From positions 13,578 to 77,577 of the forward strand of contig JACQFP010000066.1 of NCBI GenBank assembly GCA_016200005.1: 64,000 nt of DNA, written 5' to 3'. The notes below the pieces were generated by a model. That model saw nothing but the letters and a program-made list of their open reading frames with translations. It searched no databases and was not told the DNA's origin. This stretch comes from Verrucomicrobiota bacterium (lineage in GTDB: Bacteria > Verrucomicrobiota > Verrucomicrobiia > Limisphaerales > PALSA-1396). The position numbers and the translations under genes are program-made. Shown here piece by piece: positions 13,517 through 49,471 of this stretch (the stretch's first letter is position 1; each line of letters begins with the position of its first letter).

Positions 13517-13538
13517 AAAATAGTTGTTGTCTTGTCGT

Positions 13539-15266
13539 ATGAAAAAACTGGCAAAGGTTTTATTGGCCTGTCTTCCGGGGATATTTGCATTGGTGGTTCA
13601 CGCGCAAAGTCCGTTCTCGGTCTTGCCGCGCGCGGAATTCAATAACGGTGGAGTGGTGGTGCAGGTTGCGTTTGATTTTCCGACCAACCACGTTCTGTAC
13701 GCGGACAAACTTCACCTGGAACTTTCCGGCCAGGAGTCGCCGGCCACGTTCAATCTGGCCGAACCACGACTCGTTCAGGACAAGTTCAGTGGCAAACAGA
13801 AGCGCGTGTTCACTCAGCCGTTCAAGGCGAGTTGCGAATTGGCTGCAGTGCCGTCAGCCAATCTCATGCTGAAGGTTCATTTACAAGGTTGCGACGAGGC
13901 GAATTGTTTCTTCCCGGAAGATAAGATGTTTACGATCACTCCGGGCGGTTCGATTACCGAGGTTGACTTGCCCCGTGGAGTAGCGGTGGGTTCATCGCCG
14001 AGAGTGGGTGGTGGCTTTACTCCACGGGGCGAGCCGGCAGAAGCAAGTTTCTCGGCGGCACCACGCGAATGGCGTGCATTGGCGGAAGGTTTCACCGTGG
14101 CGGATCGCGGCAGCGGTTACATGAACGAAAAGGAGTTCCTCGGATTTCTCAACAAGGCCCAATCCGGCCAGGTGGTGGCAGAGACGCAACAAACTCGGAG
14201 CGGATTCCTGGGTGTGCTGCTGACCATGTCGCTGATCTTGCTCGGCGGCGTGGCGCTGAATCTTACGCCGTGCATTCTGCCGATGATCCCGATCAATCTC
14301 GCCATCATCGGGGCGGGCGCGCAGGCGGGATCGAAGCGGCGCGGATTTGCCTTGGGCGCCACGTACGCCGCGGGTATGGCCATCGCTTACGGTGTGCTGG
14401 GTCTGTTCGTTGTCCTGACCGGCTCGAAGTTCGGCACGCTGAATTCGTCGCCCTGGTTCAATCTCGGCATCGCCATAGTTTTCGTGCTCTTGGCACTCGC
14501 CATGTTCGACGTGGTTTCGATTGATCTTTCCCGTTTTCAAAGTGGATCAACGCGCAACTCCGCCGCGTCCAGAAGCAAATTTGTCGTGGCTTACACCATG
14601 GGAACCGTCGCTGCGTTGCTGGCCGGCGCGTGCGTGGCGCCGGTCGTGATTTCCGTGTTGCTTCAAGCGACGGCGTTGCACGCCAAAGGTCTTACCATTG
14701 GTCTGCTGCTGCCGTTTCTCCTCGGCGTCGGCATGGGTTTGCCCTGGCCGTTTGCCGGTGCGGGACTTTCATTCTTACCCAAGCCGGGCAAATGGATGAT
14801 GCGGGTGAAATACGGGTTTGGCGTAATGATTGTTCTTTTTGCCGCGTACTATGGTCATCTGGCATTCGGTCTTTTCCAATCCGAATCAATGATCCTGGCT
14901 CGCGCAGCCGGCAAGTCTGCGGATGAGACCGAAGTCTTCAGCGAACGGTTAACTCAGGCGTTGCGCGAGTCCCGCACCGATGGTCGGCCGGTGTTCATCG
15001 ATTTCTGGGCGAGTTGGTGCAAGAACTGTTCCGCGATGGAGCATACGACATTTGCCTCGGCGGCCGTGAAACGTCGTCTCGCTGATTTCCATGAAGTGCG
15101 TCTGCAAACCGAGAGGCCCAATCAAGCTCCTGCCAAAGAGGTGCTCGACCACTTCAAGGTGATGGGATTGCCGTCCTTTGTCGTATTGACGCCAAAGAAT
15201 TCCAACTCGTCACCTGTGGCTAAATCCGCAGTCACCGCAGTTGTATCGCGGCGTGCCGATGATTAA
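13539..15266 (+). CDS. DsbD-like thiol:disulfide interchange protein (N-terminal periplasmic domain, CcdA-type membrane core, C-terminal thioredoxin)
   Basis: LNLTPCILPMIPINL membrane-core motif, multiple TM helices, C-terminal FIDFWASWCKNC. Confidence 0.85.
   Translation: MKKLAKVLLACLPGIFALVVHAQSPFSVLPRAEFNNGGVVVQVAFDFPTNHVLYADKLHLELSGQESPATFNLAEPRLVQDKFSGKQKRVFTQPFKASCELAAVPSANLMLKVHLQGCDEANCFFPEDKMFTITPGGSITEVDLPRGVAVGSSPRVGGGFTPRGEPAEASFSAAPREWRALAEGFTVADRGSGYMNEKEFLGFLNKAQSGQVVAETQQTRSGFLGVLLTMSLILLGGVALNLTPCILPMIPINLAIIGAGAQAGSKRRGFALGATYAAGMAIAYGVLGLFVVLTGSKFGTLNSSPWFNLGIAIVFVLLALAMFDVVSIDLSRFQSGSTRNSAASRSKFVVAYTMGTVAALLAGACVAPVVISVLLQATALHAKGLTIGLLLPFLLGVGMGLPWPFAGAGLSFLPKPGKWMMRVKYGFGVMIVLFAAYYGHLAFGLFQSESMILARAAGKSADETEVFSERLTQALRESRTDGRPVFIDFWASWCKNCSAMEHTTFASAAVKRRLADFHEVRLQTERPNQAPAKEVLDHFKVMGLPSFVVLTPKNSNSSPVAKSAVTAVVSRRADD
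13966..14034. repeat. Family B palindromic element, copy 1 (intragenic, in frame, 23 codons)
   Basis: GCCCCGTGGAGTA (13970-13982) and TACTCCACGGGGC (14018-14030) are perfect reverse complements separated by 35 nt. Flanks GACTTG / GAGCC match the other copies. Confidence 0.8.
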
Positions 15267-25645: not shown

Positions 25646-28600
25646 TTATCTGATTGCGGACGCCTGCAGCGGAATTTTGAAAGTGACCATCGTGCCCTTT
25701 TCCACGTTGCCGGTCAGCTCACAACAACCTCCAAGCTGCTGCAACCGCCGCTGCATATTGTCCAATCCGTCCGCCCCGTTCCGCTGGCGCGGAGCGTCTG
25801 GAGTCAGTCCGCAGCCGTTGTCGCTGACCGTTACCGCGAGCGTTCCGTCGTTGGCGGCAATGCCAAGCCACAAATCCGTCGCACCGGAATGTTGCACGAC
25901 GTTGCTGAGCGCTTCCTTGAACGCGAGGAACAGGCTGTGGCGTTGTTCGGCGTTCAGCGGCGCAGCCGGGAGGTCCCTGGCCACGTCCAGATGGCACCGC
26001 ACGGACGTCGCCTTCATAAAATGCTGCGCAAACTGGCAAAAGTAGCTGGCCAGCGACGACACATTGTCGTGCTTGGGATTGACGGCCCAGACAATTTCGT
26101 CCAGCGCGGTCACCATCTCGCGCGCCCGCGTGCCGATCTCCCGTGTGTGTTCGCGCACTTCGTCCGGGCCGAGCGCCGCGTCTTGCGCCAATTCGCTGCC
26201 AAAGTTGATTTCGACAAGTCCCGCGCCCAAATCGTCATGCAGGTCCTGCGCGATGCGCGTCCGCTCGCGCTCTAAGACCTGCTGCTGTTCCAGCCGCTCG
26301 AGCTTGCGCCGATACCGCCGCCGCATGCCCAGCAACACTCCGCCGCCCAACAGGCCAGCGGCGGATGCGGCCGCGGTCACACGGAACCAAACCGCCTCCC
26401 ACAGATGCGGCACGACCGTGAGTGCGACCGAGGCACCGACTTCATTCCAAATTCCGTTTTGGTTGCAAGCGGTCACGCGGAAGCGGTAGTCCCCGGGAGG
26501 AATGTGGGGGTAACGCGCGATCCGCACAGCGCCGGCATCCACCCAGTCCTGATCCAAGCCCACCAGTTGGTAACGGAAAGTCACGTTCTCCGGCGACGCC
26601 AGACTCAACGCCGTGAATTCAAATCCCATGCGGTTGACTCCGGGACCGAGACGCAACGGAGTCGGAAGCTCGCCCCGTGGGATGACAGCGCCGGCCTCCG
26701 GCTCGGTACTGCGTGCGCCTATCCCACGGGGCAAGCGCAAGCTGGCTGGAGCCGGCTCATTGGTCAGGCCGGGTCGACCCAGGGTATCATAAGTGGCGGC
26801 AATCTGACCGTTGACCGTCAGGCGTTCGATGATGACCGGTGGTGGCAGCGGGTTTTTGCGAAGGGAATGTGGTTCGACTATTGCCAAGCCGGTCAGCATG
26901 GGCATCAGTAAGCGACCATCCCGGGTGCGACTGGCAACGGGACAGATTCCAAAAGCGGCCTGCAAGTTGGGCACGCCTTCCCCGCGTCCCAAGATCACGG
27001 ACTTCACGCGCGAAGCGCGGCCCTCGGCCACGGCTGCCAGCTCGGACCGAGCGATCCGAAAAATGCCCCGATTGCCGGCGATCCATAGCCGACCAAGATC
27101 ATCGGAAAGAATTTGCGAGACGTATTCGTCCCACAAACCGTGCTCGGTGCGGAACTGAAAATAACGTCCGTTCTTCAGCCAGCCCAATCCTTGTCCGACA
27201 AAACCAAACCAGAGGCTGCCATCGCTGGTTGCCTGCAAACAACGGATGTGTTGCGGGCCGCTCATGATATTCGTGGTCTCATCGATGATTGCATCCTGGT
27301 GAACGCGTAGCAGCAGGCCATCAGAAGTAGTGCCCATCCACAAATCGCCGCTGGCGTCCTCGGCCATGGTGCGAACATCGCTGGCCCCGTCGGGCAATGG
27401 AAAATACCTCAGACTGCCGTCGTACAAACGGAGGCGGGCCACGCCGGCATTGACGGCGATCCACAGATCCCCGTTGGTGCTGATGTAAAGGGCGCGGATG
27501 GAGAGATCCGTCAATTGATGATTGAGGGCCAGAGGGACAAAAGCGCCGTTCTGATGCCGAAAAACTCCCTTCTCCCGCGTGCCGACGAGAACGTCGCCGT
27601 GGAGATCGGCGGCCACGCAGGCAACTCGTCCGCCACGCCAACCGCCGTTGTTCGAAACCAGATGCCAGACGCTGTTGCTCCGACACGCCAGCGCTCCGTT
27701 TTGCCCCGCCGCCCAGAGCGTGCCCGTCGCATCCTCACAAGCGGACTGGACGGCGGCGAACGGCAGACCGGCCGCCGGGCCCACGAGTTGCACCGCGCGA
27801 GGACTCAGACGATTGAGGCCGCCGCCGCGGGTGCCGACCCAGAGATCGCCTTCGGAGTCCTCAGAAATGTTTGTGATGATCGGATTCGAAGTGCCCACAC
27901 TTTGGATGCCTTGCGAATCATATCGAAAGAGTCCGTCCGACGCGGTGCCCATCCATAAGCCGCGAGCCTTATCTTCATACAACGCGGTCACATCCGCCTC
28001 CGTGCGCCCGGGTTCAAGCTTCAGTTCTGCGACTGCCGCCAATTTGCTCCCCTCGTGATACCGATACAATTTCAAGCCCGAGCAAAGCCAGATGCCGCCT
28101 TGCCGCGCCGCGGCCAGGCGGGTGGATTGCCGCCCCAAGGTTAACAAAGTCACGAAGCGGCCGTTCCGAAATACGCCCACGCTGCCGGATTGAGAAAACC
28201 AGAGCTGGCCCTGGACGTCGGTCGTCAGCCAACAGAAACCTTGTTCAGCCAGTCCATCGGCCGTTCCAAAGCCCTGCACTTTTCCCGCTTGAATCCGGAA
28301 AACGGCACCGGCGCTGACACTGACCCAAATGCTCCCGTTTCCATCCTCGGCCATGGCCCGGGCTTGCGACCCTGGTAATGTCCCCGTCAAAGCAAAAACC
28401 TGTGTAACCCTGCCCTCATCCACGCAGATGACCGCTCCGCCGTCCTTTGCCAGCCACAATCGACCGCGCCGATCCAGCAGCATGGCGCGGATCTGCGCCG
28501 CGGTCCCGGCGGGCATGGCCGGGGCGAATTCCTGGAACCGCACCCCATCAAACCGGGCCAGCGCCCGATGCGTGGCGACCCACAAATAACCGTCGGGTGT

Positions 28601-28765
28601 TTGCTCCAAACCAACAATCGTGTGCTCCGGCAAGCCGTCCTCCGTCTGCCAGACGCGGGCGAACCATGCCGGATCCGTAGCCGCGCCCAGTGGGAGGGAG
28701 AAGAAAATCAAAATCAGACCTGCAAATCGCCACCAAGGGAAATGGCAAATCATCGGCTTGAACAC
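25646..28765 (-). CDS. Sensor histidine kinase with periplasmic two-component-regulator propeller/Y_Y_Y region, HisKA_3 and HATPase_c
   Basis: Repeated G.LW.GT..GL propeller motifs, a TM segment, RIAQDLHDDLGAGL (H-box) and a C-terminal ATPase with DNGCG. Confidence 0.9.
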   Translation of the reverse strand: MFKPMICHFPWWRFAGLILIFFSLPLGAATDPAWFARVWQTEDGLPEHTIVGLEQTPDGYLWVATHRALARFDGVRFQEFAPAMPAGTAAQIRAMLLDRRGRLWLAKDGGAVICVDEGRVTQVFALTGTLPGSQARAMAEDGNGSIWVSVSAGAVFRIQAGKVQGFGTADGLAEQGFCWLTTDVQGQLWFSQSGSVGVFRNGRFVTLLTLGRQSTRLAAARQGGIWLCSGLKLYRYHEGSKLAAVAELKLEPGRTEADVTALYEDKARGLWMGTASDGLFRYDSQGIQSVGTSNPIITNISEDSEGDLWVGTRGGGLNRLSPRAVQLVGPAAGLPFAAVQSACEDATGTLWAAGQNGALACRSNSVWHLVSNNGGWRGGRVACVAADLHGDVLVGTREKGVFRHQNGAFVPLALNHQLTDLSIRALYISTNGDLWIAVNAGVARLRLYDGSLRYFPLPDGASDVRTMAEDASGDLWMGTTSDGLLLRVHQDAIIDETTNIMSGPQHIRCLQATSDGSLWFGFVGQGLGWLKNGRYFQFRTEHGLWDEYVSQILSDDLGRLWIAGNRGIFRIARSELAAVAEGRASRVKSVILGRGEGVPNLQAAFGICPVASRTRDGRLLMPMLTGLAIVEPHSLRKNPLPPPVIIERLTVNGQIAATYDTLGRPGLTNEPAPASLRLPRGIGARSTEPEAGAVIPRGELPTPLRLGPGVNRMGFEFTALSLASPENVTFRYQLVGLDQDWVDAGAVRIARYPHIPPGDYRFRVTACNQNGIWNEVGASVALTVVPHLWEAVWFRVTAAASAAGLLGGGVLLGMRRRYRRKLERLEQQQVLERERTRIAQDLHDDLGAGLVEINFGSELAQDAALGPDEVREHTREIGTRAREMVTALDEIVWAVNPKHDNVSSLASYFCQFAQHFMKATSVRCHLDVARDLPAAPLNAEQRHSLFLAFKEALSNVVQHSGATDLWLGIAANDGTLAVTVSDNGCGLTPDAPRQRNGADGLDNMQRRLQQLGGCCELTGNVEKGTMVTFKIPLQASAIR
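26668..26736. repeat. Family B palindromic element, copy 2 (intragenic, in frame)
   Basis: GCCCCGTGGGAT (26672-26683) and ATCCCACGGGGC (26721-26732). The core is 61 bp, the same length as copies 1 and 3. Confidence 0.8.
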
Positions 28766-47838: not shown

Positions 47839-47984
47839 CCCCTCACCCTCACCCTCTCCCCATCGGATGGGGAGAGGGAACGCTTTCGCGCGTATGGACG
47901 ACACGCACCGTTCGGTGATTCGCCGCGACGTCGCCGGAGTTTCACCCTCTCCCCGTCGGACGGGGAGAGGGCCGGGGTGAGGGG
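47839..47984. repeat. Composite SPSDGER-type repeat: two inner hairpins between one pair of outer arms
   Basis: CCCCTCACCCTCA + CCCTCTCCCCATC-GGATGGGGAGAGGG (47852-47878) ... CCCTCTCCCCGTC-GGACGGGGAGAGGG (47945-47971) + GGGGTGAGGGG (47974-47984). Confidence 0.8.
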
Positions 47985-48017
47985 CGTATTCAACTCGATG
48001 GTTCCGGCTTAAATGCT

Positions 48018-48665
48018 ATGCCCACCGATTGGGAAGCCCGCTATCAGACCAACGACATGCCTTGGGAAAAGGGCGAGGCGTCGCCGGGACTGGTCGATTT
48101 TCTGGCGGCGCATCCAGCCCTCAAACGCGGCACGGTTTGTGTGCCCGGCTGCGGCACCGGCCACGATGTGCGCGCCTGGGCGCGCGCTGGTTTCACGGCG
48201 GTGGGTTACGATCTAGCGCCCAGCGCCATCCGGCTCTCCATCGAGCGCACCAAAGCGGCGGGATTATCGGCGCAATTTCAACTCGTCGATTTTCTGCGCG
48301 ACTCGCCCCGTGGAATAGGCGACGCATCAAGTTCTCTGCGTGCTGTTGCTGGTATTCCACGGGGCAAGCCGCCACAGTTGTTCGATTGGCTGTTTGAACA
48401 CACACTGTTTTGCGCGATTGATCCGAGTGAGCGCGACGAGTACGTGCGTGCCGTGCTGCGCTGGCTTAAACCCGATGGTCAATACCTGGCGGTGAATTAC
48501 CTGATTCCAGACAAGGACGGGCCGCCGTTTGGCACGACGCGGGAAGAATTGTGGCAACGATTCTCGCCGCACTTCGATCTGATGCAGGAATGGGTCCCCC
48601 GCTCGTATCCCAATCGCACCGGCTTGGAATTGATGCTGTGGTGGCGACGAAAGAAGTCAGCGTAA
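48018..48665 (+). CDS. SAM-dependent methyltransferase (thiopurine S-methyltransferase-like)
   Basis: WEARYQTNDMPWEKGEASP...VCVPGCGTGHDVRAWA..GF.AVGYDLAPSAI...LFCAIDPSERDEYV. Confidence 0.75.
   Translation: MPTDWEARYQTNDMPWEKGEASPGLVDFLAAHPALKRGTVCVPGCGTGHDVRAWARAGFTAVGYDLAPSAIRLSIERTKAAGLSAQFQLVDFLRDSPRGIGDASSSLRAVAGIPRGKPPQLFDWLFEHTLFCAIDPSERDEYVRAVLRWLKPDGQYLAVNYLIPDKDGPPFGTTREELWQRFSPHFDLMQEWVPRSYPNRTGLELMLWWRRKKSA
48301..48369. repeat. Family B palindromic element, copy 3 (intragenic, in frame)
   Basis: GCCCCGTGGAATA (48305-48317) and TATTCCACGGGGC (48353-48365), separated by 35 nt. Flanks GACTCG / AAGCC. Confidence 0.8.
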
Positions 48666-48718
48666 GCAGTTAGTGATTTACCCGCCGACGGCTGTATGCT
48701 AGGGTTTCATTGTTTTCC

Positions 48719-49471
48719 ATGAAAGCGCATCAACCATCGGCGAGTCGCACCACCTCGGGCGGTTTCACGTTAATCGAGTTGCTCGTCGTCATTGCCATCA
48801 TTGCGATTCTCGCCGGCCTGTTGCTACCGGCACTCGCGCGCGCGAAAGCCCAGGCGTTGAAAACCAAGTGCATCAGCAATCAGAAGCAAATCGGGGTCGC
48901 TTACAAACTATACGCCGATGATCACGATGGCTCGTATCCCGCTCACGACGGTTGGGCGTCGGTCGGCGGCAAGTTTTGGACGAATGCGAACGTGTCCGGC
49001 AACGCCGCTTATTACGGCGGGCGCGTGACTGAAACCAATCGTCCGTTGAACCAGTACATCGCCAACGTCGAGGTTTTTCACGACCCAGCCGACAATGGCG
49101 ATTTTCTCAATCCGCAAGTCAAGACCTGTTGGGAAGGCTGGGGCAACAGCTTCCTGGTCGAGTGGGCCGCTGATGCATTTCGGGTGAAGAAGATTACCGG
49201 CGATTCGAAGGCCACTCGCGGCAGCCCTGAGGCCACTCCGATCAAGGATTCAGAAATTGCCCGCAAACCAAGCAACAAGATCATCCAGGGCGACTGGCCG
49301 TGGCACGCGAATCGCGACGTTAATGCCAAGCAAACCATCTGGCATAATTTCAAAGGCAAGCGGTACGAAGACATGCTCTTTGGCGACAGTCACGTCGAAA
49401 GCTATACTTTTCCCAAGGCAATGGACACGTGGATTTCCGTTAACCCCGATCCGAACTTCAGTTGGTGGTAG
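48719..49471 (+). CDS. Protein with prepilin-type N-terminal cleavage/methylation domain
   Basis: [31 protein letters not shown]. Confidence 0.85.

Follow-up and report, generated by a model that had tools for sequence, protein, structure and literature searches.

A gene at positions 48018..48665 (forward strand) of the window, the 64,000-nucleotide stretch of DNA analysed here, encodes a 215-residue SAM-dependent methyltransferase of the TPMT / halide-thiol methyltransferase (HOL) type and is interrupted by a palindrome that is read through in frame, raising the question of whether this segment is an original part of the enzyme or a copy of a repeat that arrived later. The identity of the host protein is well established: it matches the Pfam TPMT family (PF05724) with 96.1 bits against a gathering cut-off of 26 (E 3e-27), its closest solved structure is the Arabidopsis methyl-halide transferase 3lcc (plant HOL1, E 5e-22), and in the orthologue alignment it keeps every column that is invariant among orthologues. 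The gene was detected in 31 of the 40 related genomes searched. Directly upstream lies lolD, and because this order is kept in four relatives, the compared genes can be treated as orthologues. The spacer between lolD and the methyltransferase gene is about 210 nt long in the window vs. about 25 nt in the same-family genome G002 (in locus L004 the lolD match ends at 1201 and the methyltransferase starts at 1228), and it is filled at 47839-47984 by two GC-rich hairpin repeats of the SPSDGER type, a family other than the one considered below (family B). Metagenome contig depth exceeds 200 over these hairpins vs. about 5-10 over the gene, showing the SPSDGER-type repeats to be highly multi-copy.

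Alignment with homologues confirmed the 63-nt segment as an insertion into the methyltransferase gene. Eleven syntenic orthologues, including those of the same-genus genome G001 and of G002, read DFLRD|EPPQLFDW, so that the spacer from DFL to FDW holds 7 residues in these proteins vs. 28 in the window protein. The same 7-residue spacer was found in 117 of 119 other top database homologues, one of them after the motif placement was corrected by hand; of the two exceptions, one lacks the motif and the other is an ENA protein (P0002) with a 28-residue spacer. The first-pass annotation, made from the DNA alone, had estimated spacers of about 33 and 10 residues, and these figures have to be replaced by 28 and 7. 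Its proposal of an extra segment was sound, although the segment comprises 21 residues and 63 nt (approximately 48303-48365) instead of 23 residues, and the alignment with family proteins that had been set beforehand as the test showed that homologues do not generally share the long spacer. Additionally, the listed matches to close orthologues split into two abutting pieces (query residues ~3-97 and ~117-213), and the alignment with 3lcc has a gap at the position of the insert. Combined DNA and protein alignment with the orthologues (L002-L012) places the net insertion at 48303..48365 on the forward strand (codons S96-G116), with a boundary ambiguity of 1 nt such that 48302-48364 fits as well. 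The residue that follows, K117 (AAG codon), replaces an ancestral Glu that most orthologues retain, and P118 is ancestral. The 21 additional residues are SPRGIGDASSSLRAVAGIPRG (SPRG...IPRG), with no stop in the host frame.

The segment is bounded by a left arm, GCCCCGTGGAATA, at 48305..48317 (forward strand, read as (S)PRGI) and a right arm, TATTCCACGGGGC, at 48353..48365 (forward strand, read as IPRG). As the first-pass annotation had described, the arms lie 35 nt apart inside the TPMT-like gene (interior at 48318..48352, forward strand), and they are exact reverse complements; the inverted repeat reaches 20 nt at 90% complementarity (48298-48317 / 48353-48372). The RNA of the 81-nt stretch around this copy folds at -44.7 kcal/mol (z = -5.6), and the two other copies in the window fold similarly. 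A search of 48150-48520 against Rfam returned solely a chance-level miRNA match (20.9 bits vs. a gathering score of 68, E 0.087). Matches to the 13-nt arm with up to two mismatches occur 7 times in the window vs. 1.2 expected, a number that none of 100 shuffles reached, and they form three equally spaced pairs at 13970/14018, 26672/26720 and 48305/48353. Copy 1 (13967..14033, forward strand) lies in a DsbD-like gene (13524..15266) and contributes LPRGVAVGSSPRVGGGFTPRG to the linker that follows the DsbD_N domain, and copy 2 (26669..26735, reverse strand) is read as LPRGIGARSTEPEAGAVIPRG within a Reg_prop/Y_Y_Y histidine kinase gene (25646..28765, reverse strand). The description of the methyltransferase segment as a third copy of a repeat family was therefore borne out: the family is palindromic and dispersed, and all three window copies are intragenic.

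This family extends across the genome (G000), a draft of 6.54 Mb in 87 contigs with 57.5% GC. Twenty pairs carry exact 9-nt arm cores, and a slightly looser definition recovered 43 hairpins vs. 3 in a control with the arms in reversed order; with about 10 more decayed copies, the total comes to about 43-55. A profile of 39 copies defines the unit as CTYG-CCCCGTGGRRTA-loop-TAYYCCACGGGG-CRAG, with conservation that ends sharply outside CTYG/CRAG and is at background beyond. In copy 3, the conserved unit covers 67 nt (48302..48368, no strand assigned) and consists of CTCG, a 12-nt arm, a 35-nt loop, a second 12-nt arm and CAAG. Among the 43 hairpins, units of 67 nt (25 copies), 64 nt (9), 40 nt (4), 43 nt (1) and 70 nt (1) all leave a remainder of one when divided by three, a rule broken by only three copies (66, 66 and 63 nt). 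Since the net insertion equals the unit minus 4 nt, the net sizes are 63, 60, 36 and 39 nt, plus 66 nt for the 70-nt unit, and are multiples of three in 40 of the 43 copies. The loop is loosely conserved among copies (at most 83% identity), the interior showed no self-complementarity (7.1 mirror pairs vs. 7.0 expected; MFE z = -0.1), and no identical copies were found in G000. The interior of copy 3 has no relative in the genome or among the confirmed members of other genomes (at most 46% identity), which, judged from these comparisons, would be unexpected if copies simply derived from a master element.

Several arrangements in the same genome were noted alongside the regular copies. Two 64-nt units stand in direct tandem at C41:41606-41729 and share one CAAG, the second having no CTYG of its own. 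At C21:122438-137540, a 15-kb stretch holds four decayed copies whose arms include GCCCTGTGAAATA and GCCCCGTTTAGTA, indicating that family B arms do decay. Short versions of 40-43 nt (C32:91648-91687, C45:2739-2781 and C73:93403-93442) are read in frame, e.g., as SPRGVPPQTPRGE, in genes for a PAS kinase, a BamB-like protein and a phosphoglucomutase. An array of related short hairpins (CCCCAGTGGAATA-9 nt-ATTCCACGGGG) lies beside tandem GAAGTAGCCCGGT units at C18:3540-6720, comprising three clusters within 3.2 kb and no obvious transposase ORF.

Overall, the reading best supported by these results, with a probability of roughly 85%, is that the segment arose when a copy of the REP/MITE-like family B, a palindromic repeat that is small and non-autonomous, inserted into the methyltransferase gene in an ancestor of this lineage. 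Two relatives carry the insert and allow its subsequent history to be followed. The ENA protein P0002, 92% identical to the window protein, has SLRGIGDSSGSLRTVAGIPRG at the same site and in frame; 4 of its 21 insert residues differ from the window vs. 13 of 190 elsewhere (p = 0.07). A contig from a soil metagenome of another study covers 48220-48497, and its copy of the insert is free of indels. According to its table of differences, which may be incomplete, third codon positions account for 11 of the 16 changes in the flanking gene vs. 1 of the 6 inside the unit, where 5 of 6 alter the residue. This third-position bias of the flanking changes suggests that purifying selection has continued to act on the host gene after the insertion and that the loop has drifted, and on these substitutions the gene looks constrained. 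Contigs from four metagenome runs contained no joint that skips the 63 nt, which, as a comparison of contigs only, is a weak test of polymorphism.

A different outcome, in which the insert is kept because it performs a function, was weighed against this history. Such a function could be a fold in the mRNA that modulates its translation or stability, a DNA site for a binding protein, or a new surface loop exapted by the enzyme. The soil copy gives this view some weight, since none of 26 arm bases has changed vs. 22 of 180 other aligned bases (Fisher p = 0.08), a pattern of arm conservation after insertion that is suggestive only; the strong RNA fold described above and the co-variation of arm positions 12-13 with the partner arm between copies (AATA/TATT, AGTA/TACT and GATA/TATC) point in the same direction. 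However, the p values are weak and the soil differences may be incompletely listed, sub-families would explain the co-variation of the arms equally well, and a Pro within the left arm is replaced by Leu in P0002, with many arms decayed elsewhere in the genome. Substitution is also faster in the loop residues than elsewhere in the protein, and the host genes are unrelated to one another. Retention by function is consequently considered improbable.

Tolerance of the insert is predicted at the level of the protein. An AlphaFold2 model built with the orthologue alignment (pTM 0.79) has a confident Rossmann core, within which strands 86-89 and 122-128, here equated with beta3 and beta4, are joined by a coil of residues 90-121, and residues 96-113 have a pLDDT below 50. 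The insert is thus predicted to be a disordered surface loop between two core strands, which supports the earlier suggestion of an insertion into a loop of the Rossmann fold, and the enzyme is predicted to tolerate it.

About 20 copies of family B lie inside ORFs with a positive coding score (codon usage trained on the long ORFs of the genome), of which 16 use the frame that reads PRG...PRG, 3 use APW...STG and 1 uses the third frame; the frame in use is free of stops in these roughly 20 genic copies. Pfam confirmed as hosts ketol-acid reductoisomerase (IlvC), phosphomannose isomerase (PMI), FeoB, phosphoglucomutase (PGM) and a BamB-like propeller, in addition to a PAS kinase, a GT4 glycosyltransferase, DsbD, the Reg_prop kinase, TPMT and a protein with a Shikimate_DH/NAD-binding domain that is possibly glutamyl-tRNA reductase (HemA, a name that does not come from Pfam). 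Inserts fall between Pfam domains in IlvC (between its two domains), PGM (domains II and III) and DsbD. Whichever arm and strand is read, the arm core (CCCCGTGG / CCACGGGG) encodes Pro-Arg-Gly, which accounts for the PRG at either end, and a mobile unit of 63 nt leaves the host frame intact. On the grounds of its frame, its length and its freedom from stops, the methyltransferase insert would be translated as 21 residues, SPRG...IPRG. Based on the positions of CRAG/CTYG in long ORFs, the PRG, APW and third frames are expected in 51%, 39% and 10% of cases. If only CRAG on the sense strand is counted, PRG should take 78% of the two open frames, since xxC-GAG is a common codon pair. PRG was observed in 16 of 19 copies vs. 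a pooled expectation of 57% (p = 0.02); the target tetranucleotide therefore explains the frame bias partly. The other 23 or so copies, to which most of the 64-nt units belong, are non-coding or of ambiguous status, and family B is not enriched in genes, simply well tolerated there.

Stable hairpins within a coding sequence are also the appearance presented by bypass elements, such as those of phage T4 gene 60 and the mitochondrial 'byp' elements, and the segment might accordingly be untranslated, either excised from the mRNA or skipped by the ribosome. A skipped segment would have no need of net lengths divisible by three in 40 of 43 copies, of a stop-free frame in about 20 genic copies, or of an insert that stays open in two diverged orthologous copies, which argues against bypass and leaves it very unlikely. 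The same can be said with greater force of the proposal that the 21 residues are ancestral, were lost by the relatives, and form a palindrome by coincidence: the segment is indeed present in two other lineages (P0002 and the soil contig), but the short spacer is found in 117 of 119 homologues at 71-81% identity and in the plant HOL1 structure, the segment is missing from the same-genus genome, and its ends coincide exactly with those of a repeat present about 43 times in unrelated genes, so that an ancestral origin is hardly credible. Mis-assembly, conceivable in a draft of 87 contigs built from metagenomes, can be set aside with near certainty because independent contigs from two runs span 47958-48800 without differences, a diverged contig from another study crosses the insert, and the ENA protein has it as well.

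Given the insertion of a family B copy, the site of entry was characterized from seven pairs of filled and empty sites, namely those of the methyltransferase, IlvC, PMI, L029, DsbD, FeoB and L030. All seven pairs show a net gain of 63 nt and no target-site duplication. Each empty site already contains one outer tetranucleotide (CGAG, (G)CAAG, (GG)CGAG, (G)CAGG, CGCG, CGC (left) and CGCG), and the junctions are ambiguous by just 1-3 nt since the empty site resembles the unit's own end. In three filled copies, the outer tetranucleotides depart from the consensus (CAGG, CGCG and CGCG) and match the respective empty sites, one of them at 3 of 4 bases; this agreement would be hard to explain unless the four bases come from the target, as judged from seven sites of which some were compared with fairly distant relatives (DsbD). 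By this reasoning, the outer CAAG of copy 3 (48365..48368, forward strand) would be derived from the target. The empty site of the methyltransferase gene in the same-genus genome reads GA|CGAG|CC, and at 48365-48368 the insert-carrying soil relative has CGAG as well (A>G at 48366), suggesting that CAAG in the window (Lys117) is probably a G-to-A change that followed the insertion. Three further loci (L019, L022 and L026) had no orthologue with an empty site in the relatives searched, the copy 2 kinase offered solely paralogues at 36-48% for this comparison, and the linker around the 40-nt copy in the PAS kinase is too variable for an empty-site alignment.

From these junctions, the mobile unit would be 63 nt long (CTYG...GGGG) and would integrate directly 5' of C-R-A-G, or equivalently 3' of CTYG on the other strand, with CGAG within an xxC-GAG Asp-Glu codon pair as the likely target of copy 3. 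The target tetranucleotide could then pair with the unit's own CTYG end, lengthening the stem by 4 bp and leaving no target-site duplication. The combination of hairpin ends, absence of duplication and a tetranucleotide target best fits a single-strand mechanism of the HUH/Y1 type, in which a transposase acting in trans would, speculatively, 'peel and paste' the unit. Single-strand transposition is offered as a tentative proposal, with the odds roughly two to one against it. A more elaborate version would add that the hairpin is adapted to coding sequence, as its multiple-of-three size, its freedom from stops in two frames on both strands and its turn-forming Pro-Arg-Gly ends might indicate, that it is mobilised in trans by an HUH enzyme through CRAG/CTYG pairing, and that its arms are selected after insertion; taken jointly, these elements make a doubtful reading.

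Candidates for such an enzyme were sought among the carriers of the repeat. Copies with exact arms occur in only 5 of 201 genomes of the same order (20 in G000, 9 in G005, 3 in G170, and 1 each in G124 and G064) and in neither G001 nor G002. The nine copies of G005 are near-identical and embedded in a larger repeat, and therefore do not represent independent transpositions. This larger repeat (L061:998-2000, L062:1025-1974 and L064:222-1210) has flanks conserved for at least 30 nt on each side, is found repeatedly on the same contigs at intervals of about 900-940 nt and is apparently non-coding. A pattern scan of GTDB species, filtered by extended arms, gave at least 33 true family matches, mostly in Verrucomicrobiota MAGs (Limisphaerales, Verrucomicrobiia) and, among the matches listed, in a few MAGs with other or doubtful labels; most unfiltered matches were due to chance in GC-rich genomes. 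Two matches, L135:3414-3474 in a Verrucomicrobiia MAG and L140:5994-6054 in a MAG labelled Candidatus Acidoferrum (Acidobacteriota), have clearly related loops, a likeness that could stem from an orthologous insertion common to both, from horizontal transfer or from mis-binning of a contig. Y1_Tnp genes are present in all five carrier genomes; none of the four in G000 (PF01797) has a family B arm within 2.5 kb. Likewise, G000 yielded no long-range arm pair bracketing a gene, its orphan arms being decayed or short copies, and no parent IS with the same terminal repeats.

Family B can be compared with four known kinds of element. Classical bacterial MITEs such as Correia/NEMIS, ERIC and Nezha (reviewed in PMC10969869) are likewise small and non-autonomous, with terminal inverted repeats and occasional in-frame fusions. 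Unlike these elements, family B is much shorter, has no target-site duplication in 7 of 7 pairs, and has no same-ended parent IS that could be found in G000. REP/REPIN sequences are also short GC-rich hairpin repeats, some of which lie wholly inside ORFs, where they contribute extra residues in loops (intragenic REPs were catalogued by Di Nocera et al. 2013, PMC3733652), and their mobilisation in trans by a Y1 (HUH) RAYT transposase has been proposed. In contrast to REPs, family B ends in CTYG/CRAG (39-copy profile) and not in GTAG or CGTC tags, about half of its copies are genic whereas REPs are mostly extragenic, and no Y1 gene flanked by family B arms, as in a REP-RAYT arrangement, was found in G000. 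Hairpin ends, the lack of a target-site duplication and a tetranucleotide at the junction are features that family B shares with the IS200/IS605 group. Members of that group insert beside a specific tetranucleotide that is recognised by base pairing, have hairpin ends and generate no target-site duplication. No transposase gene lies in or near family B, however, and the likeness therefore concerns a possible way of working and not family membership.

The closest comparison is with the Rickettsia palindromic elements (RPE), in-frame palindromic repeats within genes that are described as a hallmark of Rickettsia (Ogata et al. 2000 Science 290:347, as presented in PMC10969869 and PMC3733652). Like the RPE, family B is a multi-copy, dispersed palindromic family that lies in frame in many unrelated housekeeping genes, is absent from their orthologues, is read as an extra peptide and occupies loops and linkers; host proteins of RPE remain functional. 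Unlike the RPE of about 100-150 bp, the family B unit measures 63 nt (also 60, 39 and 36), conserves only its 16-nt arms around a variable loop, and appears to use a tetranucleotide target without duplication, and its host is a free-living Verrucomicrobiota (Limisphaerales-type) MAG vs. an obligate intracellular alphaproteobacterium. By length and host, family B is unlikely to belong to Rickettsia RPE families 1-10, from which it is set apart by description and not by sequence. No published description of family B was found in the literature, and it apparently adds an undescribed family to a kind that is already known, the RPE-like translated palindromic repeats. For annotation, its 21-residue PRG...PRG inserts should not be taken as functional motifs or gene defects. 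The family is also a natural experiment on protein loops that tolerate a 21-residue insertion and a small, clean case for in vitro work on mobile DNA, with its 63-nt unit and a tetranucleotide target that is left unduplicated. With such repeats carried in core enzymes (IlvC, PGM and FeoB) of a large, free-living groundwater Verrucomicrobiota genome, selfish DNA in coding genes of the Rickettsia style is not confined to reduced intracellular genomes.
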